Counted from the stretch's first letter, positions 4,751 through 24,930 are shown. The stretch is DNA of 32,000 nt from Candidatus Helarchaeota ASGARD archaeon Hel_GB_B (GCA_005191425.1 SUPR01000019.1:8789-40788), one strand, 5' to 3'. The notes: generated from the letters alone by a model not told the origin. Made by a program: numbers and translations.

Positions 4751-5923
4751 TTAAAATTTAATGGGATAGACCCCATATTTTTTTGTAATATTGAGCATAC
4801 CTTCAATATAATTCGCCGGAATCGTATTAGGTGGAATAGAATGGTCTGCAGCCATAATAAATCCTCCGCCAGGTCCTAAATTCTTTATTAATTTTATTGT
4901 ATAATCTTTAACTTCCTCTATTGTCCCATTTGTTAATAAAGGCATTGGGACATTTCCGACAAGCGTGATTTTATCTCCAAATTTTTCATGAATTTCAAAA
5001 ATATCCATTGGAACTGTAGACTGTATCGGGTTTAAGCCATCAAATCCGCTTTCAATGAAATCCGGGATTAATTTTCTGATATTACCACATGAGTGCAAAA
5101 TAATTTTAGAGCCATTTTTATGGACAACATTACAAATTTTTTTGTGCCATGGATAAATATACTTCTGTAAAAATTTTGGAGACATAATTGGCCCTAATTT
5201 CTCACCAAGATCTTCGCTTAACCATATAATTTCTGGCGGTGGGTCTATTTCCATAAATCTTTTAATTTTTTCAAAAGTATAAGAGCCGCTATCTTCAAAA
5301 ACTCGTTTAATAAATTTTTGTTCTTGATATAGTAATTTTGTAAATAATTCCATCCCAAATCCATTCCAAATTCGACCGAAAATTTCTCCAAAAGATGGTA
5401 AAATTACAATCTCATTGACCTTTTTTCTAATTTTTTGGTATCCATTAATTATTTGGTCAATTTTTGGATCATCAGCACTTGGTATATCCCATTCATCATA
5501 ATCTTCTTTACTTGTCCAATATCCTCCCACATAATAAAAACTCTCTGCTCCCTCAGGTAATTTTTGTATTTTCATTTTTGACCCCCAATCAGTTACAATT
5601 GTATTTTTATCGAGAAACTTAATATAAAGTGGTGGATTTGCCATAAAATATGTCAAATCTGCCCCTAAATTCTCATAAAATTTATAAAGCTTTAGTAGAT
5701 AATTTTCTCGAATAGGTGTCAATTTTCTATAAAACCAACTAAGGATATGCCTCCACCCAATCAACCAACTCACAACATTTATTATTGACTTTAAACTTGA
5801 TATTATTTGAGGACCATCATACATTTCAATTATCTTAATGGAATCAATTAGGTCTCCAAAAATTGGTATTCTATCTGGTTCTTTATGTTCTAATGTAGTT
5901 ATAACCCGATCTAAAGAATTCAT
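4751..5923 (-). CDS. Uroporphyrinogen decarboxylase / MtaA-CmuA family protein
   Basis: DRVITTLEHKEPDRIP start, SEDLG, ILHSCGN, GFDGLNPIQ, TLVGNV, GGGFIMAADHSI. These are typical UroD-superfamily metal-ligand motifs. Confidence 0.85.
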   Translation of the reverse strand: MNSLDRVITTLEHKEPDRIPIFGDLIDSIKIIEMYDGPQIISSLKSIINVVSWLIGWRHILSWFYRKLTPIRENYLLKLYKFYENLGADLTYFMANPPLYIKFLDKNTIVTDWGSKMKIQKLPEGAESFYYVGGYWTSKEDYDEWDIPSADDPKIDQIINGYQKIRKKVNEIVILPSFGEIFGRIWNGFGMELFTKLLYQEQKFIKRVFEDSGSYTFEKIKRFMEIDPPPEIIWLSEDLGEKLGPIMSPKFLQKYIYPWHKKICNVVHKNGSKIILHSCGNIRKLIPDFIESGFDGLNPIQSTVPMDIFEIHEKFGDKITLVGNVPMPLLTNGTIEEVKDYTIKLIKNLGPGGGFIMAADHSIPPNTIPANYIEGMLNITKKYGVYPIKF

Positions 5924-6159: not shown

Positions 6160-9100
6160 TTACTCCAAATCTCCTTCTAAATTAATAATTATGTTTTTTA
6201 ACTCATTTAATCTATCTTGGGAAGTGTTCCAATATCCACGATTTTCTGACTCTACTAATAATTCACAAATTTTCATAGTGGCGTATGGATTATTTTCAAG
6301 CAATTTTTTTCGCAATTTTTCATTAAAAATCAAATTATTTGCTACTTCGTCAAAGACCCAATTTTCTACTTTATGAGTTGTGGCTGCAAATCCTAATAAA
6401 TGCTCTATTCTATCTTTGATTTTTTTAGTTCCATGGAATTCATGTTTTAACATACCTTTAATCCATTTTGGGTTTAATATTCTAGTCCTTACTGAGCGTT
6501 CAATGCTAATTTTCAAATCTTCGACAATCACTTCCTCTTCTGTAGAATCAATTATCAGTTCGTCGCTATTTTCTCCCCTAACATCTTGAACTGTCCTTGA
6601 TAATCCCCCTAAAAATTCATAATAATGGTCTAAATCTGTTATTTCATATTCTATATTATCTCTTTCTTGGGTTATTAAATTTATATTTTTTAAATTGTTG
6701 GCAAAAGCTTGTTCATTTTTTATAATTTTACCTTGAAAATATAAATAGCTCATACTCTCTTTATAACTTTTTACAAGGTCTTTTTCATCTTTCCAGGCAC
6801 TATTTTCTACTAGCGTTCTCATAGCAGTGGCATATTCTGTAGGTGATGGACCAAAAATTCTAGCCATTGCAAAATCTTTCAGGTCTTTTTTCATTTTAAG
6901 GTAATGTTTTTTGATATAATTTTTTTCAATGTCTTCATCAAGATTTGCGACCATTTCAATTGCTCGGTTTATCAACTCTATGTGTGTCATAAATGTGTCG
7001 CGAAAAATACCACATATTGTAATGACAACATCTATTCTTGGCCTTTTAAGGTCTTCTAGTGGTATAACTTTAAGTTCTTTAAACCACGGATTCTTTTTAT
7101 GTAAAATTTCCACGCCAAGAAGTGATAGGATAGTCGCGATAGTATCCCCTCCGGTTTTCATAGTCTCAAAACCCCATAAAACAATTCCGATGCTTTCTGG
7201 AAATTTTTCATATTTATCAAAATATGATTGGATTAATAATTCTGCTGCCTTTTTGCCCCTTAATTCTGCAATTACAGTTGGAATTTGTCTAGGATCAAAG
7301 GCATACATTGCTCTACCTGATGGATATACATCGGGATCTCTGATAGGATCACCGCCCCGATATGGAAATATATATCTTCCTTCTAAAGATTTTAATAGAC
7401 TTGTACTCTCATCAAATTTTTCAATTCCTCTAAAAATATCATTTACATAATTAATATAATTTTTAGGAATCCATTTAGGAATATTTTTGTTCTCTATGAT
7501 ACTCTCTATAACTTTAAATGCTTCTTTTTCTATTGATTTAGAGATTTTACTATCTTTAATTTTTTCCCAATCCAAATTTTTCTGCTTGGAAACTAATTTA
7601 AAAATTGATGGGAATTCTCGGTCTATTCTTAAAGTGCTAAGCAAATATTCTAGTAATTCTTTTTTATTATATTTTCTGTCCATTATGTGTAGTCCATAAG
7701 GGATAAGTCTTCTACGCATTCTATATATTTCTTTTTTTAGCTGTCTAATTTCTAAAGGTAAATTTAATTCACTTGCCGTTTCTAGAATTAATTCCAAAGT
7801 CTTTTCATCGTTACTACTTTCATATTGGTCCAATAATTCATCAAGGACTAAATATTTTTCATATAATCCCGAATATGTCATTGGTGGTGATGCATGAGAA
7901 ATACATAACGCATAAGAACGTCTTTTTGCTATTGTAGATTCAGATGTATTCCCAATCCAATAATAATATATATGTGGCAGATTTCCAATTAAAATATCTG
8001 GGAAACAGTTTCTTGATAGAGCTACCTCTTTTCCTTTAGTAAATTCTAGCGTTCCGTGCATTCCAAAATGAATTATTGCATCTGCATTGAATTCATTCTC
8101 AATATAGCGGTAAAATGCAAGATATTGATGATGGGGCGGTAAATCTTTGTCATGATATGCTTTATCCAGGTCTTCATGAACTCCGCGTGAAGGTTGAATA
8201 CCCAAGAAAATATTTCCCAATATTATCCCTGGAATTATTATATTATTCCCGTTTGTCATTATCATTCCAGGTGGCTCTCCCCATTTTTCAATTACCTCAT
8301 TTTGTATTTCTTTTGATAGGCTTTTAAACCATTTTATATAATTTTCCAAAGAAATTTTCAATCCTTTTTTTTCAATATATCTTGGAGAATTTACAAGCCC
8401 TTTTGACAAAAATAAATCTTTTAAATCTTGGTCTGGGATCTCTACATTATACCCTGCAGATTTCAGCTTGTTTAAAAAGATTTCCAGACTTTTAAAAACA
8501 TCTAAATATCCTGCATTTCCGACATTTTCTTCACCTGGCGGATAATTATAAGTAATTATTGCAATTTTCTTATCGGAATTTGCTTTCATTCTTAAATTTA
8601 TCCATTTTAAAATTCTATTGCATAACTTTTGGACTCCATCTTCTAATACTGCAATTTTTTTTATCTTTCCCAATTCATTGTCAATATCGCTTTTAAGAAG
8701 TCCAATTATTATTGGTTCAATACCGCCATCTAATTCTGGTAATATTATTCCTAGTGCAACTTCAAGAGGATTTAAGCCATTTTTATCCATTTGCCAGTTA
8801 TCTATTTCAGTTTCATATGAACTTAATCCAATTAAATAAGGAGAATCATTTTTTATTAAAAAATCATAAGTTGGCTCGGGTTCTCCCCCATAGGGCCCAC
8901 CATGAATCCTAAAATATTGCAAATTTAAAAATAAATCAGTATATTTCAGATACTTATTAATAGCAAAAATATTGTACTCTACTTTTGAAAATACAATTAT
9001 TAAATTAACTTTGTCTTTTAAATGATTAAAGATACTATCTACTAAAGGCCTATTATCATCAAAATGCATTCCACCATAAAATAAGATCCCTACTGATGGT

Positions 9101-9765
9101 CTATTACTATTAAATTTGATTTTATTTTTGTATTCAGTTAAATCTTCAAAAAATCCTACTTGTGGAAGATAAAGGCCAAATGGCGGTTGCTTTTTTGGTG
9201 GTGGTACCTTTTTTATTTGTTTCATATTTGCATAATTTTTTAATAAAAATAAGATAAGATTTTTTAGATTCTCAGTTCCGCCCTCAGCAAAGTATTCTTG
9301 GGCTAAAATCCAATTTCTCATATCTTTTAATATACCAATTGGTAAAATTCGACCTAATTTCTTGGTAAATTCTGAAATTTTTTGCATTTTTAAAAATTTA
9401 TGTATATCAAATTCCACATCTTTATTGGGTTTAAAAATCATACTACCTTTAAATTTTCCCATATTTAGAAAGGAATAGATTTGCTGACTTCCTGCAACTA
9501 AAACAACAATGGTTTTGTCTAACCCTTTCAATAAACTTGATAACTCTCTTCCTACTCTAATATCGCCCCTAATATCAATAAGAATGATATCTGATTCAAT
9601 TATTTTATTCTTTATTTCTTGTAGTGAAATATTGTTGTTTTCAAATTCATCAAAATAAACTTTATGCACCTCAACAATTTTACCATATTCTAACTTTATC
9701 TCATTAATTGCTTCTTTTAAGCTAGTTGTATTATTTATTGTAGTTAATGCCAAGATTCGTTTCAC
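6160..9765 (-). CDS. Class I chelatase large subunit (CobN/ChlH/BchH family), ChlH-like
   Basis: [91 protein letters not shown] start overlaps the upstream TGA, with a GGAGGAG RBS. Confidence 0.92.
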
Positions 9766-11549
9766 ATTATCTCCTCCAAATAAAAGTGTGATGCGTTAAA
9801 TATCTTGGATATCTTTTCGAGTATTCCTATACTTTTATACCTATTTTCTGCATTGATAATTACAAAATTTGTATTATTTGAAATTGAATTAAGAAATTTA
9901 ATGTCTTCATCGATATTATTTTTTATAAATACATTACCTTTACCATCTGAAATCAATACTATAGTTGGAGTATTATTTTTATATTTATTAGCCAATTCAA
10001 TTGCTTTATATAGAGCTATAGTCAATGGAGTTTTACCACCAGTAGGTAGGTCCTGTAAAGCTTCTTCTATTTTTATCATATCTCTAGTGGGATTAACTAA
10101 AATACGTGCATTTTCTCCCCTAAATGATATAAGACCTACTTTATTTTTTCCTTCATAGGACTTTTTAAGGAGAAGCCACGACAATGTTTTGGCGAATTTT
10201 ATTTTTTTATCGATTCTCATTGACGAAGATGAATCCAATAATATTATGTATAGCGAGCTACTTTTCCCAATTCGTATTTTTTCCATTAAATGTTCAGGTA
10301 ATATTTCCAATTTCCCGTTTTCTCTCACAGATTTTCTAATAGTAGCATCTATGGCAATATTTTTAGGTTTATCACTATTTCTTGCTTTAATATATAGTCC
10401 TCGCTCACTGTTAATCTTGAATAAATCTTTACCTTTAGATATCCCGTATATTTTTGAATTTAATAAATTATTTTTAATCTCACCTTGTCTATCAAAATCA
10501 AATACTTCTTCATTAACTTTAGTCCTAATCATTTTCTGAATAGATTCAGGTGTAAGTTGTTTTCTTTTATCAAAAGGATCTTGCCTTAATCTATGGTTTA
10601 ATGCTAATTGAGTTGCTTCTATTAAATCATTTTCAATTACATAATTTCTTCCATCTAATGCCATTAAGGCTTTTATTACTTTTTCCATTACAATATCTGC
10701 TCGATGCGTTTTTATACCCAAGGATATCGTAATTTCTACTATTTTTTCAAGAATTTCATCAGGAATGTCTATAATATCTATATTCATTTGGGCTTTCGCT
10801 ATTTTTTCTCTTAATCTATCAATTTCATTTTTAAATTTACTTTCAAATTTCCATGGATCTTTATCAAATTCTGATCTATATTTTACAACTTTCATTCTAT
10901 CTTCTTTATTACTTAGCGCTGATATATTAACGCAAAGCCCAAACCTGTCCAATAATTGAGGCCTCAAATCTCCTTCTTCTGGGTTCATCGTCCCGACTAA
11001 TATAAATCTTGATGGATGATATATGGAAATCCCTTCTCGTTCAATTATATTAACGCCCATTGCAGCTGCATCTAATAAAATGTTTGCAAGATGATCGTCA
11101 AGTAAATTCACTTCATCAATATACAATATATTCCTGTTAGCTTTTGCCAATATTCCAGGTTCTAAAGCCTTTACTCCTTCTTTAAGTGCCTTCTTTATGT
11201 CTATTGTTCCTACGACCATATCTTCAGTTGCAGATAATGGCATATCTATAATCTCCATTCTCCGTTCTATCCACGGTAATTTTCCTTCTTCCTTAAATCT
11301 TTTCTGACATGTAGGACACATTAATCTTAAATTTTCCGGATCGCAATTAAACGGACAATCCTTAACAACTTTTATTTTTGGTAATAAATCCATTAATGCA
11401 CGGACTGCTGTCGATTTTCCTGTCCCTTTATCACCATTAATTAGTACTCCACCTATTAATGGGTCAATAGCATTAATCAATAATGCTTTTTTCATTAAAT
11501 CTTGTCCAATTATTGCTGTAAATGGGAAAATTACAAATTTATGGTTCAA
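9762..11549 (-). CDS. Class I chelatase AAA+ subunit, ChlI/ChlD-type with C-terminal vWA domain
   Basis: [18 protein letters not shown] (Walker A), [23 protein letters not shown] (Walker B), [19 protein letters not shown], vWA MIDAS DSSSSM, GGKTPL, LISDG. TTG start with a GGTGA RBS. Confidence 0.92.
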
Positions 11550-12000: not shown

Positions 12001-13545
12001 ATGGGTATTTCAAGTCTAATTGTCCAAAAGATTATAAAATATGTTGATAAATTCATTAGAAAAGATATTGAGCGTCCACTTGAAATTCAAGAAAAGTTAT
12101 TTCATAGCATAATTAAAAGAAATACCCATACAAAATTCGGTATAGACCATAAATTTAGTGAGATCTATAATATTGAAGATTATCAGAAAAATTGTATGCC
12201 CCAAAAATATGAATATTTCAAACCTTACATTGATGAAATTTTTAAAGGAAACTTTAATTCTCTTTTTAATGCCAGATTAGTCTGTTTTGGTCAAACTCCT
12301 GGGACTACAAGTACACCCAAATTAATTCCTATTATTCATCAAACATTTTCCAGTGTATCTCTAGCACAATTACGAATTTATACTTCATATATCTTAGAGG
12401 ACCCTGCTAAAAATGCGCAATTTTTGGACGGTATTACATGCTTTTTTAGTGCATATCCTATTTTAAGAAAAATCAAAATAGGAAATCGTAGTTTCAATAT
12501 TGGCTATGGGACGGGAATTTTCTCGTATCCAATATTATATGATATTTCTCATATTTGGAAGATTCTTCTAAAAAACAAAACATTTATCCCAATTGAATTG
12601 AATATAATGACAGATCTAGACAAAAAATATCGGTATTTAACTGATGAATGCTTAAAAAGGGATATAAGGTGTTTCTCAGGGACGCCCCCAATAATTCTCA
12701 ATTATTTAGAAAAAATTTTAGATTATAGTGGAGCAAAAAAAATTATTCAACTTTTTCCAAATCTCAGTTATCTCAATTTTGGCGGTATTCCACCCCTATT
12801 TTATGAAAAACGTATTGAGCATGTAATTGGGCGTTCCATTGATTATAGAGAAATGTATGCCGCCACAGAAGGTGTTATAGGTTATCAATTAGACAAAACT
12901 CCTTCACTGCTAACCCCTGCATTTGATGCTAACTTTTTTGAGTTCATAAGTGTTGACCAACCTGATAAATGCTATACTCTTGCTGATGTTAAAAAGAATG
13001 TCAAGTATAGGGTAGTAATGACGTCATACAATGGTTTTTATAGGTATTTGATTGGCGATATAATCGAATTTAAAAAAATTGACCCTTATTTGTTCAAATT
13101 TGTTGATAGAGAAAATTCAATAAATTTAATGGATGAAAAAATGTCCGTAGACCAAATTTATCTTGCTATTCAAACGAGTGCCCAAAAATTGGATATAATT
13201 ATTAAAGAATTTTCGGTTGTAGGTGTCCAAAAAGATAATAGATATGTAATAATTATTGAATTCCTAAAAAAATCTGACTCAAAATTTTATCAGCAATTTA
13301 TACATCAATTAGATGATAATTTTTGCAAAATCAATCCTACATACAAATATTTCAGAAAAAATGTCAAGACAATCAAACCACCAATTTTATGGGTTGTAAA
13401 ACCTAACGCATTTAATGAAGTCGAGAATGAACGAATAAAAGAAGGGCAAGCTAGTCATCAATTGAAAATTTTACAAGCAAGTATGGACCTAAATATTTTA
13501 TCTGAATTTGAAAATAAAATATTACAAGTCATTACTCTGAAATAA
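12001..13545 (+). CDS. GH3 family acyl-adenylate/amido synthetase-like protein (paralog A)
   Basis: N-terminal QEKLFHSIIKRNTHTKFGIDHKF, QTPGTTSTPKLIP, FSGTP, YAATEG, FFEFI, GFYRYLIGDII. Confidence 0.85.
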   Translation: MGISSLIVQKIIKYVDKFIRKDIERPLEIQEKLFHSIIKRNTHTKFGIDHKFSEIYNIEDYQKNCMPQKYEYFKPYIDEIFKGNFNSLFNARLVCFGQTPGTTSTPKLIPIIHQTFSSVSLAQLRIYTSYILEDPAKNAQFLDGITCFFSAYPILRKIKIGNRSFNIGYGTGIFSYPILYDISHIWKILLKNKTFIPIELNIMTDLDKKYRYLTDECLKRDIRCFSGTPPIILNYLEKILDYSGAKKIIQLFPNLSYLNFGGIPPLFYEKRIEHVIGRSIDYREMYAATEGVIGYQLDKTPSLLTPAFDANFFEFISVDQPDKCYTLADVKKNVKYRVVMTSYNGFYRYLIGDIIEFKKIDPYLFKFVDRENSINLMDEKMSVDQIYLAIQTSAQKLDIIIKEFSVVGVQKDNRYVIIIEFLKKSDSKFYQQFIHQLDDNFCKINPTYKYFRKNVKTIKPPILWVVKPNAFNEVENERIKEGQASHQLKILQASMDLNILSEFENKILQVITLK

Positions 13546-13707
13546 CAAATATAGACCCATTTTCTTATTTTTAAAATCAAAAAATAACTTAAAAAAACGC
13601 GATATCTAATTATTATGCCTTATTTTTTTTAAAATAATCAATCAAAAATTTAAATAATAGGAATGGTAATATTATTATTGAATTTCTTAATTTTAGGTAG
13701 GGTTTTA

Positions 13708-16371
13708 ATGAATCCAAGAATTTTTAAATATAAGGAAAATGTTCTTTCAGCGCCTTATGAAATATGTATTGAACGACCAAAATATTATACTGAGTCCTAT
13801 AAGAAAACCGAGGGTCTCCATCCTGTATTAAGGTCTGCCATGGCTTTTAAACATTTAGTTGAGAATATGACTATTTATATTTTAGATGAAGAGATTTTAG
13901 TCGGTAATAGGACCTCAAAATTAGTGGCACCAATTATACCTATTGAACGGGGAGAGATCAACACAGTAATGAAGGTCGACTTAAACAATTTATTAAAAAG
14001 AAAATTCCAGCCCTTTCACATCGATAAAAAAGATAAAAAATTATTAATGAAGAAAATTCTCCCATATTGGAAGGGTAAAACAGTAAAAGATTTACGTACT
14101 AAATTATTAAAAGAAAATAAACTCATAATTAAACCCAGTATTGGCATAAAATCTTGGATTAAAAGATATAAGTCTATGGGCGGCTTTAATTGGCTAAAAA
14201 AATTTTATGACCTTTTAATGAAGGGCAGATTACGATATATGTTTGAAGGTCTTACTTTACTTGCTACTAATAACCCAAACTTCGTAAATAATGTATTTGA
14301 TACTCAAGGGCACCTTGTCATGGGACATAATAATTTATTAGAAATTGGCGGGTTCTCCAAAATAAAGGAAAAAGCATTAAGAAAATTAGAAGAGCTGGAA
14401 TCTTCGATAAATGAAAATAAAGACCCACCTGAAGTAATACAAAAAAGTATACCTAAAAATTATAGTTCCTTTAATAATCATATTTCCGATGACTTAAATT
14501 CAGACCTCTTAACTCCTGAACAAAAAGTTGTAGACTATATAAGTCCAGATTCTCTCTCTTTAGAAGATAAAAAGGCATTTCTTAAAGCAGTTTGTATTTG
14601 TTGTGATGCTACCAAAATTTATGCCGAACGGTTTTCAAAACTTGCAAATGAAATGGCAATGAAGGAAACGAATAAAGATAGAAAAGAAGAATTGCAAAAG
14701 ATATCTGAAGTCTGTAAACAAGTCCCATGGAATGGACCCAGAGACTTTCATGAAGCAGTCCAAATGGTCTGGTTTAACCAGGTATTAGGATATTTATCTC
14801 ATGGAATTGGTGCTATTTTTGCACTTGGCCGCCCAGACCAATATCTTTATCCGTTTTATTTAAAAGATAAAGAGAAAGGTATGCCTGACCAATATTTTCT
14901 GGACTTAATAGAAGACCTACTCATTAAAACTTCTTATAATTTATTACCTCTTCCATCTTATGCAAAAGCTACGGCTTCCGAATTAGGCGGCGATAATGTA
15001 GGAATTTGCGTTGGCGGTCTGGACAAAGATGGAAATGACGCCACTAATGAGCTCAGTTATTTGTTTATGGACGCTATTAAAGACCTTAAAAACATGACTA
15101 ATTCGTTTTCAATCCGGACTTCTTCTAAGAGTAGTCGAAAATGGTTTGATAAAATTGTAGAAGTATGTACGACTACTTCAGGCCCTGCAATTTATAATGA
15201 CGATGTAATTATCGAGGCACTCAAAAAAACCGGTCTTACGCTGGAAGATGCCAGAGATTATGGAGTAATTGGGTGCGTTGAGCCCTCCGGACAAGGTAAT
15301 ACGCATTCTTGTACTTCTGGTAATGACATTGACTTATATGGAATATTAGAGCAGGTATTCACTAATGGAATGATAAGGAGCTGGGGCAAAAGAAGTGGTT
15401 TAAAAACGGGGAATCCAAGTGATTTTAAGACTTTTAACGAATTTTATAATGCATTTTTGAAGCAATTAAAATTCTGGATCGATTTTATTGTCAAATGGGT
15501 GGATATTAAGGATTATGTATACGCAAAATATTATCCAAATCCATTTGTTTCATGCACAATGAGTGGTTGCATTGAACATGCTGCTGATATAACCCAAGGT
15601 GGTGCAAAATATAATATGTCTAGCATCTCTGGGAGAGCTTTTGGTACCACCGTGGACAGCCTTTACGTAATTAAAACAGCTGTTTATGAAAAAAATGTTA
15701 TTTCGATGGAAAAACTGTGTAAAATGCTAGCAAAAAATTTCAAGGGAAAAGAAGCCGAAATCATCAGACAAAAATTTGAAAATAAATTTCCCAAATATGG
15801 AAATGATATCGAGGACGTTGATACCCTCGCCGTAAAGTTAACGGAACATTTTTGTAAAATGGTCCGTCAAAATAGATGTATCCATACAAACGAAAATGGC
15901 GGCATTTATCGACCGGGGTTCTTTTCATATGGAATGAACGTTTCTGATGGATTCTTTCTAGGTGCAAGCCCTGATGGTAGATTGGCTGGTACGCCGGTTT
16001 CAAACAGTATGTCTCCTTCAAATAATTCTGAACGAAATGGACTAACTGCAGTGTTAAATTCTGTTTCTAAGATTGATTTTACCAACGTCAGTAATGGATA
16101 TTCTATAAATGTAAGAATCCCCACAAGCTTATTTAATAACAAGGAAAATTCCCAAAAACTTGCTCAGATTATACGTTCCTATTTTCAGCAAGGTGGAAGT
16201 CATATCCAATTTAATATAATTGACCACCACGTGTTATTAGATGCACAAAAACATCCTGAAAATTACAAGGATCTTGTTGTTAGAGTAACCGGATACGCTG
16301 CCTATTTTATAGACTTGGGAAAATACGTCCAAGATGACATTATTGCGAGATGTCAGTTCCAGATGCTATAG
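13708..16371 (+). CDS. Glycyl radical enzyme (PFL2/eliminase-like), substrate unknown
   Basis: EICIERPKYYTESYKKTEG, LGRPDQYLYPFY, GCVEP Cys loop, FPKYGND, SPDGRLAG, HIQFNII, LVVRVTGYAAYF glycyl motif. The ATG at 13708 (preceded by GGTAGGG) is preferred over 13663. Confidence 0.95.
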   Translation: MNPRIFKYKENVLSAPYEICIERPKYYTESYKKTEGLHPVLRSAMAFKHLVENMTIYILDEEILVGNRTSKLVAPIIPIERGEINTVMKVDLNNLLKRKFQPFHIDKKDKKLLMKKILPYWKGKTVKDLRTKLLKENKLIIKPSIGIKSWIKRYKSMGGFNWLKKFYDLLMKGRLRYMFEGLTLLATNNPNFVNNVFDTQGHLVMGHNNLLEIGGFSKIKEKALRKLEELESSINENKDPPEVIQKSIPKNYSSFNNHISDDLNSDLLTPEQKVVDYISPDSLSLEDKKAFLKAVCICCDATKIYAERFSKLANEMAMKETNKDRKEELQKISEVCKQVPWNGPRDFHEAVQMVWFNQVLGYLSHGIGAIFALGRPDQYLYPFYLKDKEKGMPDQYFLDLIEDLLIKTSYNLLPLPSYAKATASELGGDNVGICVGGLDKDGNDATNELSYLFMDAIKDLKNMTNSFSIRTSSKSSRKWFDKIVEVCTTTSGPAIYNDDVIIEALKKTGLTLEDARDYGVIGCVEPSGQGNTHSCTSGNDIDLYGILEQVFTNGMIRSWGKRSGLKTGNPSDFKTFNEFYNAFLKQLKFWIDFIVKWVDIKDYVYAKYYPNPFVSCTMSGCIEHAADITQGGAKYNMSSISGRAFGTTVDSLYVIKTAVYEKNVISMEKLCKMLAKNFKGKEAEIIRQKFENKFPKYGNDIEDVDTLAVKLTEHFCKMVRQNRCIHTNENGGIYRPGFFSYGMNVSDGFFLGASPDGRLAGTPVSNSMSPSNNSERNGLTAVLNSVSKIDFTNVSNGYSINVRIPTSLFNNKENSQKLAQIIRSYFQQGGSHIQFNIIDHHVLLDAQKHPENYKDLVVRVTGYAAYFIDLGKYVQDDIIARCQFQML

Positions 16372-16471
16372 ACTTTCTATGTTATAATTTCGAATTTAAC
16401 TTTTTTAATTCCATTCAAAATAAATAGTTTTTGAGTTATACATTATTTAGTAAAAATTTGAGGGTTCTAAA

Positions 16472-17455
16472 TTGTCATTCGTAAACTTAGAAGATGACGA
16501 TAAATTAAGAATTTTATTAAATTCGGCAAGTCTAGAGCAATTAAAGGAATTAATACGGGATTATAATGATGAATGCATTAAAAATAACCAAAAAGAAAAT
16601 AAAATTAAAGGATATTCCAAGTACAGAAAACTTGAACTGACCGATTTTATAATTTCTTCCTTGTCTGATGAATATAAAAAGAAACTATTACCAAAAATCG
16701 AAAAACAATACGTTCAATATCTAATTTCTGATGGGATTTTAATTTTGAAAAATCAAGATACCCGTGAAGTACTAAATAAAGTTGAACATTTCGAAGGTCT
16801 GGAAACCGGCTATTCTTTTATTTTTAAGGGTTTCAATTGGGAAACTGAAACAAAAATAATACTTGCAGATGATGGTTCAATAGATGACTTTATATGTGGC
16901 TGTAGAATTGCTCAGAACCAGGGATTATGCAGGCATTTCTTTACAGGTTTGATTTATCTTTTAAATATTGGTGAATTAGACCCAAACAATCTTGGCATTT
17001 TTTTCGAGATTGAAGATGATAAATTAAAGGAAATAAAATCATTGGAAGTTGTAATTGGAAAATCAAGACCAGGGACTGGCGTTGAAACTTTAATGCCTTT
17101 TGATAAGATTGAAACCGCTCCAGTGATCGAACAATTTGCATCTGAGGACGAAAAGCAGCGCGTTTCAATTTATGATGCAAAAATTGTTTTAATAAGCGAA
17201 AATAAGTCTACATTTCAAGACCATGTCAATATATGGTATCTTATTAAAATACAAGGTGGTGAATGCGGAAATATTGACGAAACATTACCTGATAAAGAAC
17301 CTTTCAATGAAATTAATATAAGGTGTTCAAAGAAATTGATGGAGAAAGAAAAATTAAAAGTTAATGACATAATCTCGTTTAAGGGTACCTTAAAAAGAGA
17401 TAACTTTTTTGGTCTTTTATTACAAAATATACGTAAAATTGTTAAATCAAATTAA
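16472..17455 (+). CDS. SWIM zinc finger protein with Rho-N/HeH-like N-terminus and OB-fold-like C-terminus
   Basis: FICGCRIAQNQGLCRH (CxC-x8-CxH). N-terminus LEQLKELIR...IKGYSKYRKLEL. Beta-rich C-terminus ending LKVNDIISFKGTLKRDNFFG. Confidence 0.65.
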   Translation: MSFVNLEDDDKLRILLNSASLEQLKELIRDYNDECIKNNQKENKIKGYSKYRKLELTDFIISSLSDEYKKKLLPKIEKQYVQYLISDGILILKNQDTREVLNKVEHFEGLETGYSFIFKGFNWETETKIILADDGSIDDFICGCRIAQNQGLCRHFFTGLIYLLNIGELDPNNLGIFFEIEDDKLKEIKSLEVVIGKSRPGTGVETLMPFDKIETAPVIEQFASEDEKQRVSIYDAKIVLISENKSTFQDHVNIWYLIKIQGGECGNIDETLPDKEPFNEINIRCSKKLMEKEKLKVNDIISFKGTLKRDNFFGLLLQNIRKIVKSN

Positions 17456-17605
17456 AAATTTAATTTTTAGGTCTCTAATTTTTTTGTAATTATAAATTTT
17501 TCTAATTTTCATATGATTTTTTAAGTAAAAAAGATTTTTAAATTCTATATTATGATTTACAATGAATTTGGATGAAATTAGGTTAATTAAAAGGAAGAAT
17601 AGAAA

Positions 17606-18736
17606 ATGAGCAAAAAAAAAGTGATTTTAATATCGATTTTTTCGATAATTATTGCTGTAACTATTTATGCATTAATAGATTTTATTTATCCACAATTCAA
17701 CCTAATTCCAGACTGGGTATTTCCGACTATTTATTCTTATTTAGTAGTAATTTTTTATAAGGACAACTATTATTTCTTTATCATTGCTCTTTTAGCAAAT
17801 TTCATAAGCGGAGGTATTTTTGGACTTGGTTATAATATTACAAAGCGATATCGAGTCAACGGGACAATAATTTATTTGATTGGTCTATGTGGTATTTTTC
17901 TAATAATCTTAATTTCTATTGGGTATTATGGCTTTAGTATTATTTTTGCGGACGATATTACAGTTTCCTTAAAGATCATTTTATTAGGGACATATATGCC
18001 ACTTCTGTTTATTTTTTTTTTAATATTAGAATTAATTTTTGATTCTGGCTCTTATTTAAAAGATGTAATCAAGGCAAGGCACGAATATAAAAATCTTGAT
18101 TATAGGGTAAAAAAGATAAAAGACGGAAAAGTAACTTTTATTGAAGTTTTTCGGAAAAATGAGGATTCAACAACCAAGTGTTTTTTTGAAACTGCACCTC
18201 AATTAGTCTTAGAAGAAGCACTATACAAGCTTGGTGATGGAGCAATATCAAGGTACATTAAAGCTGCAGCTACTAATATTATTCTCTTAATTGCATCCCA
18301 TTTAACTGGGTGGCATTCTGCAAAAGCTGCATTATATAGATTCCTTGGTGCTAAAATTGGCAAACATTGTTTAATTTCTCATTATAGCAGGTTTGACCCA
18401 CTTATGCCTAATAAAATCGAGATGGAAGATTATGCAGGAATTGGGATGGAAGTATTATTACTTACCCATAGTTTTATTGATAGAGAAGGTTTTATGGGAT
18501 TTAGATATGGCACTGTTAAATTATGTAAACATTGCCGTATTGGAGTTAGTGCTACAGTTTTACCCGGTGTCACAATTGGAGAAGGAGCTGTCGTAGCTGC
18601 AAATTCATTAGTAACCAAAGATATCCCTCCTTGGACAATGGTAGGCGGAGTCCCTGCAAAAGTCATCCGGAAACTTGACCGGTCAATAGCTCATGTTTTG
18701 ACCAATGAAATTGATGGTGAATTAATGGATGAATAA
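17606..18736 (+). CDS. Membrane-anchored left-handed beta-helix (hexapeptide) acyltransferase
   Basis: About 4 hydrophobic helices in the first ~145 aa, then LYRFLGAKIGK, LLTHSF, VLPGVTIGEGAVVAANSLVTKDIPPWTMVGGVPAKVIR. Confidence 0.85.
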   Translation: MSKKKVILISIFSIIIAVTIYALIDFIYPQFNLIPDWVFPTIYSYLVVIFYKDNYYFFIIALLANFISGGIFGLGYNITKRYRVNGTIIYLIGLCGIFLIILISIGYYGFSIIFADDITVSLKIILLGTYMPLLFIFFLILELIFDSGSYLKDVIKARHEYKNLDYRVKKIKDGKVTFIEVFRKNEDSTTKCFFETAPQLVLEEALYKLGDGAISRYIKAAATNIILLIASHLTGWHSAKAALYRFLGAKIGKHCLISHYSRFDPLMPNKIEMEDYAGIGMEVLLLTHSFIDREGFMGFRYGTVKLCKHCRIGVSATVLPGVTIGEGAVVAANSLVTKDIPPWTMVGGVPAKVIRKLDRSIAHVLTNEIDGELMDE

Positions 18737-18798
18737 AATGAACGTTAAATAATATAGAAAATTGAAAATAATAATTCTGCTCGTGTATTCAGGTCAAT

Positions 18799-20340
18799 GT
18801 GATGAAGTTTCTAAGTTTGATTGGAAAATCGTTTGGAAATTATCTTCTAAATTATTTTGAGGATAAAAACGAAGCACCAATTAAAACTCAGATTAAATTA
18901 TTGAGTAAAATTTTAAAATATAATTCTACTACTAATTTTGGAAAGAAACACCATTTTTCTGAAGTTAGGAGTATACGAGATTTCCAGAAAAATTGTAAAA
19001 TTATAGATTATTCTTATTTAGTTCCTTATATTCGCGCTACAATAGAGGGAAACAAAAATGCATTAACAAATTCTAAAATTTTATATTGGGCACAGACTTC
19101 CGGAACTCTTGGCGCACCGAAATTGATCCCTATAACTAAGTTTATAATTGATACTTATAGTTCATTGTCGGTTAGAATTATTTTACATTATATAAAAGAA
19201 TATCCTGAGAGGTCTGAATTTCTGGACGGTAAATGGTTTTTATTATCTAGTTACCCTTTATTAAGGTATGAAAAAGACGGAACCCCAGTCGGATTTATAA
19301 CGGGTATCATTATGCATCCATTTGGAATTTATTCATGGAAAAAATTTATCAGACCTTTTTATTATTATCCGATCAAATTTCTACAAATAAGAGATGTAGA
19401 AACTAGGTTCAAAAGGATCGCTGTTGATATTAAAAATAAAAATATTACTTACACAATGGGAGTAACTTCTGTTATAATGAACTTTTTTGAGAAAATAATT
19501 GAATATAATAATGTAAATAATTTACTGGAAATTATACCTAATTACAAATTTGCAATTTTTTCAGGAGGGGGCACAAGAAAATATATTGATAGATTTTATA
19601 AAATAGTCGGGAGGAAAATAGATGTAAGAGAAGGTTATTTTGCAACTGAAGGGAGTTTTGCTATTCAAAAATCTGATAAACCTGTAATGGAATTTGCATA
19701 CGATTCTTGTTTTTACGAATTTTTACCTGTTTCAAATAAAAATAAAGGTATTGAACGACTCATTATAGACCAGTTAGAAAAAAACAAAGAATATTCCCTC
19801 ATTATTACTTGTTATAATGGACTTTATGCTTATACTATGAATGATATTATTAAAGTAATTTCTACTGACCCCCTACAAATTCAGTTTTCTTATCGATCTG
19901 GAGTTATTGATTTAGCTGATGAAAAATTAACACCTAATGAAATAAATATGGCTGTTATGTATTCAGCAAATAAAAATAATTGCGATTTTATTGATTATTG
20001 TTTAGTCGGAGTTTATAACCCTAAACCTCATTACATATTTATTTTTGAATTTAAAGATAAAAACACTCCAAAAGATTATACGCTATTTTTGAAAGATATT
20101 GACTTAAAATTACAAGAACTTAATAATATTTATTACTTTAACATCGCAGGGCCCAATAAAGGGACTTTAACGAGTCCAGAATTGTGGGTACTTAAAAAGA
20201 ATGGCTTTATCGAAGCAAATAACAGAAAAATTAATGAATTTGATAATATTGGGCAATCCAAAATTAATCGTTATTCTACTGATAGCACTATATTGAAATA
20301 TTTTGATGATTTAATAATTTCCAAATATTATTTAGAGTAA
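18799..20340 (+). CDS. GH3 family acyl-adenylate/amido synthetase-like protein (paralog B)
   Basis: QIKLLSKILKYNSTTNFGKKHHF, QTSGTLGAPKLIP, YFATEG, FYEFLP, GLYAYTMNDII. Starts at GTG 18799 or ATG 18802. Confidence 0.85.
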   Translation: MMKFLSLIGKSFGNYLLNYFEDKNEAPIKTQIKLLSKILKYNSTTNFGKKHHFSEVRSIRDFQKNCKIIDYSYLVPYIRATIEGNKNALTNSKILYWAQTSGTLGAPKLIPITKFIIDTYSSLSVRIILHYIKEYPERSEFLDGKWFLLSSYPLLRYEKDGTPVGFITGIIMHPFGIYSWKKFIRPFYYYPIKFLQIRDVETRFKRIAVDIKNKNITYTMGVTSVIMNFFEKIIEYNNVNNLLEIIPNYKFAIFSGGGTRKYIDRFYKIVGRKIDVREGYFATEGSFAIQKSDKPVMEFAYDSCFYEFLPVSNKNKGIERLIIDQLEKNKEYSLIITCYNGLYAYTMNDIIKVISTDPLQIQFSYRSGVIDLADEKLTPNEINMAVMYSANKNNCDFIDYCLVGVYNPKPHYIFIFEFKDKNTPKDYTLFLKDIDLKLQELNNIYYFNIAGPNKGTLTSPELWVLKKNGFIEANNRKINEFDNIGQSKINRYSTDSTILKYFDDLIISKYYLE

Positions 20341-20367
20341 ATTAAATAAAAAGATGGTTTAAATAGA

Positions 20368-21051
20368 TTGAATAAAAATAAATTTGAAAAATATTATCAA
20401 AGGGAAGGTTTAAAATTTGGATTGAATGATTATTATATCGGAATTTACCAGATGTATTCATCTCATGCCTGTAGAATTTCGATTATAAAAAAATGGTTAA
20501 AACTTATTAAAACTGGAAATTTCTGTGAAGTAGGTTGTGGATTTGGTTATTTTACTCATTTTGTCGCAAAAAAAGGAATACCAAGTACTGGTATAGATAT
20601 CTCCGAAAATAAATTGAAAATAGCTCGGCGAATTGCAGAAAAAAATAAATTAAACTGTAAGTTTTATAGGATGGACGCTCAAAATTTAGATTTCAAGGGC
20701 AATTCTTTTAATTGGGTACTTAGTTCTCAAGTTTTAGAACATGTTCCTGATGATTTAAAAATGATTTCCGAATTATACAGAATTTCTAAAAAATATACTA
20801 TTCTTACTGTTCCCAAAAAAGCGTTATTCTGGGAATTATTAGATTCCAGTTCTCACATTAGAAGTTTTGATAAACCTGGACATGGGCATCTAAGAGAATA
20901 TACCACTAAAAATATTATTGAAAAAGTAAATAAGGTTGGATTTAAAGTCTTAGAGATGAAATATGCTGGTTTTATTTCCCCCCGAATTGATATTATATTT
21001 AATAAAATACCTTTTATGCAAGCAATAATATGTCTCTTGCTTAGGAAATGA
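20368..21051 (+). CDS. Class I SAM-dependent methyltransferase
   Basis: CEVGCGFG, GIDIS, MDAQNLDFKGNSFNWVLSSQVLEHVPDD, HGHLREYT. Confidence 0.88.
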   Translation: MNKNKFEKYYQREGLKFGLNDYYIGIYQMYSSHACRISIIKKWLKLIKTGNFCEVGCGFGYFTHFVAKKGIPSTGIDISENKLKIARRIAEKNKLNCKFYRMDAQNLDFKGNSFNWVLSSQVLEHVPDDLKMISELYRISKKYTILTVPKKALFWELLDSSSHIRSFDKPGHGHLREYTTKNIIEKVNKVGFKVLEMKYAGFISPRIDIIFNKIPFMQAIICLLLRK

Positions 21052-21791: not shown

Positions 21792-22406
21792 ATGAGTTCA
21801 GAAAACAAAAAAGGATTTAAGCTTAGTTATAAATATTATAAGATGTTATTAAACTTTAAGGAAAAAACAAATATCCCTGAAATTAAAATTCCGGGTGTTA
21901 TTATTAGAAAATATGATAAAGATAAAGATTTTAATAAATTTGTAGATTTATATAATAAAATTAAAGTCCCATTTTATGACCCAAATTATACTGAATCTGA
22001 ATTTAAATTAATCCAAAATGATATGGTCTTTTTAGCTGAAATTGACAATAAATTAGTTGGGTATGTCATCTGTTTTATAAGGGACGCAAAATATGATAAA
22101 GATTCAGAACAATTTTTTGATAAAGAATTAGCGCAATATGTAAATAAAAATGAAAGACTGGGTGTTTTGGGAGAAATTGGTGTACTCGAAGAATATAGGA
22201 GGAGTGGAATTGCAACAGCATTAGCTGCAGAAGTAGGGCGTTACTTTAAAGAGAAAAATGTGGATAAGATCTATGCTGAAGCTTATTCAGAAAATGTTGA
22301 AGCCTTAAAATTTATACAGAGCTTTGGGTTTAAGAAAATTGGTATGGTGGTAGTTACACAAGACGAAGTTAGAAAACCACATCCAAGAAGGATTCGACCG
22401 AGTTAA
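21792..22406 (+). CDS. GNAT family N-acetyltransferase
   Basis: LAEIDNKLVGYV, IGVLEEYRRSGIATAL (acetyl-CoA motif A), NVEALKFIQSFGF. Confidence 0.88.
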   Translation: MSSENKKGFKLSYKYYKMLLNFKEKTNIPEIKIPGVIIRKYDKDKDFNKFVDLYNKIKVPFYDPNYTESEFKLIQNDMVFLAEIDNKLVGYVICFIRDAKYDKDSEQFFDKELAQYVNKNERLGVLGEIGVLEEYRRSGIATALAAEVGRYFKEKNVDKIYAEAYSENVEALKFIQSFGFKKIGMVVVTQDEVRKPHPRRIRPS

Positions 22407-22430: not shown

Positions 22431-23183
22431 TCATTTATTTACGGAGCGGTCGTAAGCAAAAATTCCTAAAAAAATGATTGAAATTGTAAAAATTGTGATC
22501 CCGATCATATCTTGAATTTGTATTTGCCATTGAAAAAGAAGCGACCTTAATATATTAACTCCGAAACTCATTGGATTGAATTGTAATATATAAACTACCA
22601 GATTTGGGAAATAATTTGAGATTATATCAATAGGGTAGAATATTGTAGAACCAAACATCAACCACAAATACACCAAACTTCGAGCTAATGTAAAATTCCG
22701 GCTACCCCTAATCGATGTAGCTAAAATAATTGCCAATGAAGTCATGGAAAGCGAAAAAACTATAATAAAAAATAATATAATCAGAATTTCTAAAATATTC
22801 GGTAATCTAATTAAAATAAATGATGTAATAAGTAGTGGAAATGAATAAACAAGCCCTTGCAAGGCTCCAGCTAATGCCCTGCCTAATATAAAGTCCAATC
22901 TTTTTAAAGGTAAAGAAAGTAAATAAAAATCAAATTTGTTTTCTTTTTCAATATTTATTTTCCGCCCTAAAATGAATGACGCTGAAAATGCAGAAACTAA
23001 AGTTATTCCAGGACTGAAAAATTTCAAATAATTCAGGCCAACAATTAAATTTCCGAGTGTATTTGCCATAATCAACAAATCAATGATATATGATACCATT
23101 AATATTGCGATCCAATAAGTAAACCTGAAAAAGTTCTTAATGTCCATTTTTAAAATTATAACAAATGTTAGTCGGTTTTTCAA
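22431..23183 (-). CDS. ABC-2 type transporter permease
   Basis: Multi-TM protein with FFSPG, LGRALAG, STIFYP, NPMSFGVNILR. Start is TTG 23183 or ATG 23147. Confidence 0.88.
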   Translation of the reverse strand: MKNRLTFVIILKMDIKNFFRFTYWIAILMVSYIIDLLIMANTLGNLIVGLNYLKFFSPGITLVSAFSASFILGRKINIEKENKFDFYLLSLPLKRLDFILGRALAGALQGLVYSFPLLITSFILIRLPNILEILIILFFIIVFSLSMTSLAIILATSIRGSRNFTLARSLVYLWLMFGSTIFYPIDIISNYFPNLVVYILQFNPMSFGVNILRSLLFQWQIQIQDMIGITIFTISIIFLGIFAYDRSVNK

Positions 23184-23959
23184 CTGAATTTTCCACCCTC
23201 CAGTTTTGAAATATATAATTTTAAACTAATAGTCATTAATCCTACTGAGAAAATAATTAAATATAAAACAGGATATGTTATATTTGTAATTTGTTGGACC
23301 CCGGTACTATACCTCAGCAAATCACTGGCATGAGTCAATGGATTTAACCGAGAAGCTAACTTCATCCAGAACATCATTGCAGATTCTGGATAATAAATCG
23401 TCGACAGTCTTATCATAAAAATATCTATTATTCCAATCAAAAAGTCTAATACCATCACAGATTTAATTAATGAACCTAATGTGATCGCAAAACCTGATAG
23501 TCCAAGTCCGAATATGACCAAAATCCCAATTATTAATAATAAGTTTATTATATTTGGAACCCCCACAATTAACAATATTATTATTAAAAATGGTGCGATA
23601 TATATTAAATTTCTAAAAGTTGAACCGAGCATCCTACCAATTACATATTCTGATTTCTTAATTGGCAAACTAAGATAATAATCAACCATACCAGATTGCC
23701 GCTCTCCTGATACACTCCAAGCTGTAAACATTGAAAATGACCATAATGTAAGGACTGACATCCCTATCGCATAATATTGCATATAATTTAAACTGGGAAT
23801 TAAATAATTCAAAATAAATGCATAAATAAATGTTTGGACTATAAATGACAGTGAGTTGGTAAATAAATATAGTTTATTTGCTAATAAATGCTTCCATTCA
23901 CGTTCTATAATTCTTAATATATTATATAATGTATTATTTCTTAGATTTAATATGTTCAA
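23180..23959 (-). CDS. ABC-2 type transporter permease
   Basis: IIEREWK, ERQSG...LPI, IGRMLG, STIYYP, NPLTHASDLLR. Confidence 0.88.
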   Translation of the reverse strand: MNILNLRNNTLYNILRIIEREWKHLLANKLYLFTNSLSFIVQTFIYAFILNYLIPSLNYMQYYAIGMSVLTLWSFSMFTAWSVSGERQSGMVDYYLSLPIKKSEYVIGRMLGSTFRNLIYIAPFLIIILLIVGVPNIINLLLIIGILVIFGLGLSGFAITLGSLIKSVMVLDFLIGIIDIFMIRLSTIYYPESAMMFWMKLASRLNPLTHASDLLRYSTGVQQITNITYPVLYLIIFSVGLMTISLKLYISKLEGGKFS

Positions 23960-24930
23960 CCTCCATTAGTTAAAAGAGACTTTGTATAATAGAAAAAAAC
24001 ATCGTCTAAACTTGGGTTTGTAGTTTCGAGGTTCTTAATAATTATTTTATTGCTCTGAAAAAATTGCAAAATTTCTGGAGTTACCTTTTTAATGTTTCTT
24101 ACTAAAATTTTCATCTCAATTTCATTTGTATTTTCAGAATTTTCTTTAAAATAAATTTCTGAAATATATGGTAAATTTAATAACTGCGATTTTACTTCTT
24201 TAAGTTCTAATTTGCAAGTATTTTTCTCAAAATTAATCATAATAACGTTTCCCGCCGGAATTGAATTTTTCAAATTTTCAGGGCTATCAATTTTTATAAT
24301 TTTACCTTCGTTCATAATTGCGACACGGTCTGACAGGACGTCTGCTTCGTGCATTAAATTTGTAGCTAAAATAATTGTGCTCCCATTTTCGTCATTGAGT
24401 TCTTTTATGTAATCCCAAATTATCTTTTTCATTACGGGGTCTAGAAACGCGGTCGGTTCGTCAAAAATTGCAATTTTTGGCTTGGCGACGAGTACTTTAC
24501 ACACTTCTATTTTTTTTCTGGTCCCTCCAGATAATTTCCAGTTTTTTATTTTTCTATAATCTTCCAATTTTAGTGATTTAATAAGCTCATTTATCCTTTT
24601 ATTTAATTCTACCTTCGGAATTTTATATACTTTCCCATGAAACCGGAGTGTTTCAACTAAATTTAATTGCCAGTCTAATTTTGGGTCTTGAAAACTTACT
24701 GAGATTAATTTACGGACATTATATGGCTGGTCTATGATACTAAATCCTCCTACTTTAGCACTCCCAGAATCTGGCTTTATAATTGTCGCCAATAAATTTA
24801 TCAGAGTCGACTTCCCTGCACCATTTGGACCAAGTAACCCGAATATCTCTCCATCATTAATATTCAAGCTTACATTATCAACTGCAATAATTTTTTTAAA
24901 CTTTTTTGTTAACCCATTTATTTCAATCAT
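23956..24930 (-). CDS. ABC transporter ATP-binding protein (DrrA-like)
   Basis: GPNGAGKST, LSGG, IAIFDEPT, and C-terminal PSLDDVFFYYT. Confidence 0.92.
   Translation of the reverse strand: MIEINGLTKKFKKIIAVDNVSLNINDGEIFGLLGPNGAGKSTLINLLATIIKPDSGSAKVGGFSIIDQPYNVRKLISVSFQDPKLDWQLNLVETLRFHGKVYKIPKVELNKRINELIKSLKLEDYRKIKNWKLSGGTRKKIEVCKVLVAKPKIAIFDEPTAFLDPVMKKIIWDYIKELNDENGSTIILATNLMHEADVLSDRVAIMNEGKIIKIDSPENLKNSIPAGNVIMINFEKNTCKLELKEVKSQLLNLPYISEIYFKENSENTNEIEMKILVRNIKKVTPEILQFFQSNKIIIKNLETTNPSLDDVFFYYTKSLLTNGG

Follow-up and report, generated by a model that had tools for sequence, protein, structure and literature searches.

GH3-family acyl-acid amido synthetases have been studied well in plants, and here we report on members of this family in a gene block of Candidatus Helarchaeota ASGARD archaeon Hel_GB_B, located in a stretch of 32,000 nucleotides (GCA_005191425.1, SUPR01000019.1:8789-40788) which is called the window throughout this text. 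Positions 12001-21051 of the window are filled by six open reading frames (ORFs), all on the + strand, for two GH3 enzymes (GH3-A and GH3-B), a glycyl radical enzyme (GRE), a protein of 327 residues (ORF3), a membrane-anchored acetyltransferase and a methyltransferase. With regard to described systems, the only characterised prokaryotic GH3 is OlsH, a lipid amide synthetase, whose gene shares one operon of Singulisphaera acidiphila with those of the N-methyltransferase OlsG and the O-acyltransferase OlsI, the product being trimethyl-ornithine lipid (PMC12493201). Archaea are stated to lack aminolipids (PMC12493201, PMC12971839), and our search of the literature for GH3 proteins of Asgard or other archaea yielded no paper.

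Comparatively, the Asgard block is like the Ols operon in that a gene for a GH3-type amide synthetase lies beside those for a methyltransferase dependent on S-adenosylmethionine (SAM) and an acyltransferase, and the known Ols product is a membrane lipid. It is unlike the Ols operon in its three GH3 paralogs against one, in its three B12-radical-SAM enzymes and in its archaeal host. OlsI is an alpha/beta-hydrolase, whereas the Asgard acyltransferase is a membrane-anchored hexapeptide O-acetyltransferase; no alpha/beta-hydrolase O-acyltransferase was found in the block, and the acyltransferase that adjoins GH3-B is this hexapeptide-repeat enzyme. Because the cut-off of the OlsH model is missed widely and the acyltransferase is of another fold, the block resembles the Ols operon in outline at most, and is no member of it. 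The block belongs to a real, conserved and uncharacterised gene system of Asgard archaea, whose function we infer from its context. We tentatively propose, at a little short of an even chance, that ATP-dependent amide ligation, together with O-acetylation and methylation, serves in this system to tailor a membrane-bound head group, either of a lipid or of a glycolipid.

The original prediction had described six co-oriented genes bracketed by two full-length GH3 paralogs, and our ORF calls agree with it in gene number, orientation, positions and spacings; GH3-A (12001-13545, +, 514 residues) and GH3-B (18799-20340, +, 513 residues) share 34% identity over their full length (E 8e-86). It had also staked its case on gene order being conserved in relatives, and such conservation was indeed observed: the order GH3-A, GRE, ORF3, acetyltransferase, GH3-B, methyltransferase recurs in four other Asgard contigs, with protein identities of 59-77%. 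These contigs are Helarchaeota- or Lokiarchaeia-like and come from different samples. Two of them, the 527-kb Helarchaeota contig L017 (~70% identity to the window block) and contig L078, carry the complete order, and the other two, L018 and L076, carry it as far as the contig ends allow; in L078 an extra ORF of 191 residues stands between GH3-A and the remaining block. Orthologs of GH3-A hold the equivalent position in L017, L076 and L078, and the position of the methyltransferase is kept in L017, L018, L078 and L079 (68-70% identity). The downstream flank differs, with a TnpB-like gene and a DUF87 protein in L018 and a Ras/Roc GTPase in L078, and therefore the block has survived rearrangement around it. 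The recurrence of the six-gene arrangement is not due to chance, and the complete order is known in one sub-lineage only. The window has a G+C content of ~29%, the nearest named homologs of its proteins come from metagenome bins of Helarchaeota, Lokiarchaeota and Promethearchaeota, and the sequencing runs listed for the 9-kb stretch are all DNA-type metagenomes of hydrothermal vent and marine sediment samples, with no RNA run among them.

Within the block, the acetyltransferase gene (17606-18736, +) is separated from GH3-B by 62 nucleotides and GH3-B from the methyltransferase gene (20368-21051, +) by 27 nucleotides, and these intergenic gaps contain no T-tracts. The gaps around the GRE (13663-16371, +) and ORF3 (16472-17455, +) measure 117 (or 162, from a later GRE start), 100 and 150 nucleotides and contain tracts of T5-T8; T-tracts are present 3' of GH3-A (T8), the GRE, ORF3 and the methyltransferase (T6). 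The caveat of the original prediction, that the GRE and SWIM genes may be transcribed separately, agrees with the tracts seen around both. We consider the operon of acetyltransferase, GH3-B and methyltransferase (17606-21051), aided by GH3-A, to be the working core of the proposed system in the window.

Both GH3 enzymes of the window match the N, M and C models of the Pfam GH3 family, with domain scores of 86, 54 and 60 bits for GH3-A and of 108, 54 and 43 bits for GH3-B; a third paralog of the same genome, GH3-C, recorded 121, 52 and 43 bits (each cut-off 23.6). OlsH was the sole NCBIfam model matched by the three proteins (NF052613; 167, 147 and 141 bits for GH3-A, GH3-B and GH3-C), and its equivalog cut-off of 620 was not reached. 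In a maximum likelihood tree of 83 GH3 proteins, with support from the Shimodaira-Hasegawa-like approximate likelihood ratio test, three well-supported Asgard clades were recognized (A with 99%, C with 96%, and A and C as sisters with 99%), clade B consisting of two groups with 100% each. The three clades jointly received 98% support, apart from bacterial homologs, and GH3-A was placed in clade A. The nucleotide-binding motifs (S/T)xGT(T/S)xxxPK, YxA(S/T)E and YxYxxxD are kept in clades A, B and C, together with clade-specific signatures; judging from their sequences, all three clades look catalytically competent, and the GH3 paralog clades of Asgard archaea are ancient and intact. They share with the plant enzymes (JAR1, GH3.5/3.6 and grapevine GH3-1) the three-domain family, the nucleotide motifs and the expected chemistry from acyl-AMP to amide, but the Asgard proteins are ~70-100 residues shorter, their similarity is remote and they have no hormone context. 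Their distance from OlsH as well as from plant GH3 points to no particular acid or amine.

Several other GH3 genes of Asgard archaea were noticed. Six or seven tandem GH3 paralogs, with 25-29% identity to the window GH3 proteins, are found in another Asgard family (L072:3592-15076, L073:4990-11552 and L074:1-9292, from genomes G109, G108 and G111, respectively), followed in L072 by an ABC ATPase, and this array looks like an assembly line of amide ligases. A more plant-like GH3 of 554 residues (grapevine GH3-1, E 6.5e-34, full length) is encoded in a Lokiarchaeia genome (G152, L028:1477-3141); it shares 24% identity with GH3-B, and no acetyltransferase was found in the short flanks fetched. 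The GH3 of the Asgard family f31 (L085-L090 and L095) belongs to a different clade (21-24% identity) and is a single gene; in seven out of eight loci of this family it is divergent to an adjoining, conserved operon of nine genes, a setting that is uninformative for the window cluster. Upstream of GH3-A, a gene for an MtaA/URO-D-like methyltransferase lies directly adjacent and divergent in L076 and L078 and is near GH3-A in L017; in the window (4751-5923 and 6160-11549, both on the - strand) this gene and GH3-A are separated by a CobN/ChlD-type chelatase pair.

GH3-B is the obligate downstream partner of the membrane acetyltransferase: a clade-B GH3 gene stands directly behind it in 14 of 14 loci examined, at spacings from a 4-nucleotide overlap to 70 nucleotides. 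This adjacency spans clades that are only 33-46% identical, often with stop and start codons overlapping by 4 nucleotides, and in four loci a clade-C GH3 gene is found directly 5' of the acetyltransferase. In three Lokiarchaeia genomes (L063:10808-13081, L064:4265-6761 and L067:10999-13493) two genes come after the pair whose proteins belong to the family of 2-hydroxyacyl-CoA dehydratase D-components and double-cubane reductases. The pair also occurs in L022 (GCA_035531115, DATKTP010000115), which is filed as the bacterium 'Candidatus Deferrimicrobium' and has downstream genes as in the metagenome contig L021; a Cdc6/Orc1 gene of archaeal type is also present. L022 is archaeal in all probability and was mis-binned.

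The acetyltransferase itself has 376 residues, a match to Pfam Hexapep and a hydrophobic N-terminal part of ~150 residues. Its AlphaFold model (pLDDT 86) displays five long membrane helices, with the helical segments at residues 3-27, 38-78, 83-113 and 120-156, then a small beta-hairpin and helical linker, and a left-handed beta-helix. Foldseek aligned ~170 columns to maltose/galactoside O-acetyltransferases and to the sugar N-acyltransferase AntD (E 3e-9, target TM-score ~0.6), and comparison with the PDB by sequence likewise gave galactoside and maltose O-acetyltransferases. The best NCBIfam match is the heptaprenylglyceryl-phosphate O-acetyltransferase YvoF (NF058585), at 90 bits against a cut-off of 300. 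His288, at the catalytic position, and Asp146 and Arg158, which sit where the membrane domain ends, are invariant in 22 homologs. The enzyme thus keeps the left-handed beta-helix and the catalytic His of the maltose/galactoside enzymes, and is unlike them and YvoF in its extra N-terminal five-helix membrane domain with conserved residues, which was observed in Asgard archaea only. All named full-length homologs are from Asgard archaea, bar the one probably mis-binned contig; outside these, generic acetyltransferases match the soluble domain only, and the membrane domain gave no usable match as an atlas-search query. The model's fold type makes a short-acyl donor more likely. The 'membrane acyltransferase' of the original prediction has five predicted membrane helices and is an enzyme of the maltose/galactoside O-acetyltransferase type. 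A poly-lysine synthetase was also considered and rejected, as the Pls C-terminal model scored 39 bits, no better than many hexapeptide families, and Foldseek retrieved ordinary acetyltransferases.

A larger arrangement was observed in more distant relatives. Contigs L019, L021, L068 and L069 (33-46% identity) hold one cluster consisting of a clade-A GH3, three B12-radical-SAM genes, a clade-C GH3, the acetyltransferase and a clade-B GH3, and L019 has three glycosyltransferase genes just downstream. In this genome, GH3-C is found on contig C126, where it comes immediately after three B12-radical-SAM genes; the ancestral GH3 cluster is split over two contigs here. For two of the three radical SAM proteins the best model is HpnJ, known for ring contraction of the hopanoid head group. 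The B12-radical-SAM genes also score on peptide-maturation methylase models, all three proteins being far under every cut-off. Between such genes in the GH3 clusters, single-pass membrane proteins of ~80 residues recur, which fall into three families and have a basic segment conserved on the cytosolic side. They were seen in L019, L021, L068 and L024 (4008-4109 on the - strand and 7249-7470 on the + strand), with related stretches in the C126 cluster, and may tether the radical SAM enzymes to the membrane.

The acetyltransferase family extends beyond the GH3 genes. In the main Lokiarchaeia family, ~58 genomes have a full-length homolog, and any GH3 is present in only 4 of 135 genomes. Eight acetyltransferase loci without GH3 were examined (L057-L062, L070 and L071), six of them from this family. 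Family-2 glycosyltransferases are near the acetyltransferase in all eight, a NodB-type polysaccharide deacetylase in six, a CDP-alcohol phosphatidyltransferase in six (best model archaetidylinositol-phosphate synthase), B12-radical-SAM genes with 36-41% identity to those of C126 in five, and a LuxE-type acyl-adenylate-forming ligase in four. By comparison of coordinates by hand, a LuxE-family gene lies at most 6 kb from the acetyltransferase in ~31 of the ~58 Lokiarchaeia genomes. Given this proximity of either LuxE or GH3, an adenylate-forming ligase is the habitual partner of the acetyltransferase family, in surroundings of a lipid or glycan type, and the loci without GH3 represent a probable glycolipid head-group pathway of Lokiarchaeia. 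In this genome, a homolog of the NodB-type deacetylase is found on contig C105, without the cluster of glycosyltransferase and CDP-alcohol transferase that its relatives have.

This combination recalls the tailoring of lipo-chitooligosaccharides (Nod factors), with a glycosyltransferase (NodC), an amine-freeing deacetylase (NodB), acylation of the amine (NodA), a hexapeptide O-acetyltransferase (NodL), a SAM methyltransferase (NodS) and an ABC-2 exporter (NodIJ). The likeness is one of analogy only: the pieces are spread over the window (acetyltransferase, GH3, methyltransferase and ABC-2 exporter) and the paralogous loci (family-2 glycosyltransferase, NodB-type deacetylase, acetyltransferase and LuxE-type ligase). 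Unlike the Nod factor genes, the window has no glycosyltransferase or deacetylase, and N-acylation would use an adenylating ligase rather than NodA.

The methyltransferase of the block is a class I SAM-dependent enzyme (Methyltransf_31, _11 and _25, E ~1e-19 to 1e-20), for whose specificity NCBIfam and PDB searches gave generic matches only, with no specific NodS match among the Pfam results. The more distant GH3 clusters do not contain it. Downstream lie a GNAT acetyltransferase (21792-22406, +; Acetyltransf_1, E 2e-15) and an ABC-2 type exporter (22431-24930, -) with two permeases and a DrrA-like ATPase (ABC2_membrane twice, ABC_tran and DrrA1-3_C), both of uncertain membership. The original prediction had counted two acyl-CoA ligases, a GNAT, a PAP2 and an ABC-2 exporter nearby as fitting its pathway, and all of these neighbours were found, the ligases as AMP-binding proteins. 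The GNAT matched FeeM with 21.5 bits, under the cut-off of 27; it occurs near the methyltransferase in L017, L078, L079 and L080, and none was found within 10 kb in L018. The exporter is conserved in the close relatives L017 and L079 only, and its linkage may reflect recent shared ancestry.

The GRE is of the 1,2-eliminase type (PFL-like 518 bits, Gly_radical 105 bits). Against TIGR01774 it recorded 609 bits, short of the cut-off of 678, and it attains the cut-off of no equivalog model. Among solved structures the B12-independent glycerol dehydratase 1r8w is nearest (E 1.9e-133). Like this enzyme and related 1,2-eliminases, the GRE keeps the Cys-x-Glu pair and the glycine loop: RVTGYAAYF is found near the C-terminus, Cys538 is invariant in 120 relatives, and Glu540, likewise invariant, aligns with Glu435 of 1r8w. 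Unlike the dehydratase, it is ~100 residues longer, has no adjacent activase, and places Ile385 and Ser552 at the dehydratase positions 282 (Ser) and 447 (Asp), which we take to be glycerol-binding, so that the dehydratase residues are not matched there. Its first 15 codons (13663-13707) are hydrophobic and unmatched in the dehydratase alignment, which begins at residue 19; from the sequence, the true start is probably Met16 at 13708. An arylacetate decarboxylase was rejected, as the models of indoleacetate and hydroxyphenylacetate decarboxylases score far below the dehydratase models. No radical SAM activase for the GRE was found in the window; three GREs are encoded in the genome, together with a single canonical activase (TIGR02494, 330 bits), which is located on a fourth contig, C152. 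The relatives of the GRE form a family of 120 members in Asgard archaea and bacteria (43-77% identity), with a common signature after the catalytic Cys, in which the in-block orthologs differ solely at position 548, having His where the rest of the family has Phe. A paralog with 53% identity stands in a run of genes in L077 (8001-14912) with a corrinoid protein, a URO-D-like methyltransferase and an SCP2 protein, and in the same run an aldehyde:ferredoxin oxidoreductase and an iron alcohol dehydrogenase lie beside it, these two being the usual company of a catabolic dehydratase. The run is a candidate catabolic module for the whole GRE family.

ORF3 has no family match in Pfam, where no SWIM model match was reported, or in NCBIfam. 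It contains a SWIM zinc-finger motif of the form CxCx8CxH, whose residues C142, C144, C153 and H155 are invariant in six homologs. The AlphaFold model (mean pLDDT 86) consists of a helical N-terminus, a small sheet with the SWIM ligands and a C-terminal barrel, which Foldseek relates weakly (E 3e-3 to 1e-2) to the OB folds of PriB, SSB and Stn1. The protein shares 43-47% identity with its positional orthologs, whereas the other block genes share ~60-75%; its homologs in two genomes of the same order (G123 and G124) sit in unrelated contexts, and the more distant GH3 clusters lack it. Most likely ORF3 binds nucleic acid rather than acting as an enzyme of the pathway, and it is probably a later insert in one sub-lineage that is transcribed separately.

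In the proposed head-group system, each GH3 would adenylate a carboxylate with ATP and join an amine to it to form an amide, as the chemistry of the family and the intact nucleotide-binding motifs suggest. The acetyltransferase, anchored by its five helices, would take a short acyl group from acyl-CoA and place it on a membrane-held acceptor, at a hydroxyl or at an amine, in keeping with its fold and the invariant His288; the methyltransferase would methylate the product, and the ABC-2 transporter might, speculatively, flip or export it. GH3-C, the three B12-radical-SAM enzymes and the small single-pass membrane proteins would contribute from C126. Owing to the five-helix acetyltransferase, the ~80-residue membrane proteins and the lipid- or glycan-type paralogous loci, we suppose that the substrate is held in the membrane, and the acceptor would most likely be a lipo-amino acid or the head group of a polar lipid or glycolipid. 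The resemblance of the soluble domain to sugar O- and N-acyltransferases, and the ether-lipid O-acetyltransferase model as its best NCBIfam match, likewise speak for an acceptor of the sugar or lipid type. Several observations weigh against this proposal. Neither a glycosyltransferase, a deacetylase nor a CDP-alcohol transferase was found in the window and the close relatives, so that the glycolipid idea draws on the paralogous loci and on L019. The methyltransferase is confined to the sub-lineage that also has the GRE, and the linkage of ABC-2 exporter, GNAT and PAP2 is limited to close relatives. The GH3 scores of 141-167 bits are far under the OlsH cut-off, and the plant GH3 proteins are only distant relatives (best PDB E 9e-15, with partial coverage). 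Enzymes of the maltose-acetyltransferase type normally use acetyl-CoA, and therefore a fatty 'piggy-back' acylation as in ornithine lipids is unlikely. The intergenic DNA has 15-19% GC, so T5 tracts are common by chance.

Other explanations of the locus draw on the same observations. A soluble small molecule, such as a short oligo-amide or a siderophore- or peptide-like product made without a non-ribosomal synthetase, could be built by the GH3 ligases, then acetylated, methylated and exported by the ABC-2 system; three distinct intact amide ligases in one system, the assembly-line look of the tandem paralogs with their ABC ATPase, the exporter that adjoins the block and the scores of the B12-radical-SAM genes on peptide-maturation methylase models would all suit it. 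We consider it quite unlikely, as the five-helix membrane domain of the acetyltransferase is conserved and contains charged residues that are invariant, the radical SAM genes are accompanied by single-pass membrane partners, the paralogous loci are of a lipid or glycan type (with CDP-alcohol phosphatidyltransferase as well as family-2 glycosyltransferases), neither a carrier protein nor a precursor peptide was found, and the exporter is linked in close relatives only. That there is no common pathway at all, and that independent genes stand together by recent ancestry, GH3 serving for instance in the conjugation or detoxification of organic acids, like its plant counterparts, and the acetyltransferase in a general envelope role, is very improbable: the adjacency of acetyltransferase and GH3-B holds across strongly diverged clades, with overlapping stop and start codons, GH3-A, GH3-C and the B12-radical-SAM genes are associated in four independent loci, and the block stays while its flanks change. 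It would nevertheless accord with the complete order being limited to one sub-lineage at 59-77% identity, with the T-tracts that divide the block into at least four units, and with the acetyltransferase family occurring without GH3 in most Lokiarchaeia genomes (GH3 in 4 of 135).

The original prediction had proposed one pathway, possibly with a radical elimination. In its full form this model includes all six genes, and the GRE would act by radical elimination or dehydration on what GH3 handles, be it the acid, the amine or their conjugate. The GRE does lie in the interval from GH3-A to the acetyltransferase in the window and in L017, L018, L076 and L078, five contigs that stem from different samples, the His548 of the in-block enzymes points to a possible change of specificity, and difficult redox chemistry recurs elsewhere beside the acetyltransferase/GH3-B pair, in the form of three B12-radical-SAM enzymes or of the dehydratase/double-cubane pair. 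However, in L075 and in G126, a genome of the same genus, an ortholog of the GRE with 74-75% identity is located away from any GH3 block and adjoins a second GRE with its activase, and the distant GH3 clusters are free of the GRE. Its family of 120 members has one active-site signature, its 53% paralog is placed in a catabolic context beside aldehyde-handling enzymes, its gene is flanked by T-tracts and its activase is missing from the window, all of which make a role of the GRE in the pathway unlikely. Because of the ortholog outside GH3 blocks, the GRE-free distant clusters, the family-wide signature and the catabolic context of the paralog, the GRE is probably a lineage-specific insert that is likely to have its own transcription and need not belong to the pathway. 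The pathway idea of the original prediction is thus upheld for the core of acetyltransferase, GH3 and methyltransferase, with its tight linkage and the precedent of OlsH, and probably not for the GRE, and it had overlooked the presence of three GH3 paralogs and three B12-radical-SAM enzymes. A bolder form of the head-group proposal, which we regard as rather improbable, is that the membrane lipids made by Asgard archaea include amide-linked ones, whether with amino-acylated or N-acylated head groups or as true lipo-amino acids, a lipid class that reviews describe as missing in archaea. They would be built by a dedicated system of three GH3 ligases, the membrane acetyltransferase and three B12-radical-SAM enzymes, with the GRE recruited in the Helarchaeota-like lineage to provide or remodel one building block.

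Only one prokaryotic GH3 (OlsH, in 2025) has a known function, and no archaeal one has. In Asgard archaea three ancient GH3 clades are found fixed beside an Asgard-only membrane acetyltransferase and B12-radical-SAM enzymes, and the GRE, probably separate from this pathway, belongs to a large uncharacterised family of anaerobe enzymes. The product of the system may be a new kind of archaeal membrane component. If it is the head group of a membrane lipid or glycolipid, there would be defined targets for lipidomics in the few cultured Asgard strains, and archaeal membrane chemistry would gain a new class. It would do so in the closest lineage to eukaryotes, for which the composition of the membrane has a central place in models of how eukaryotes arose.

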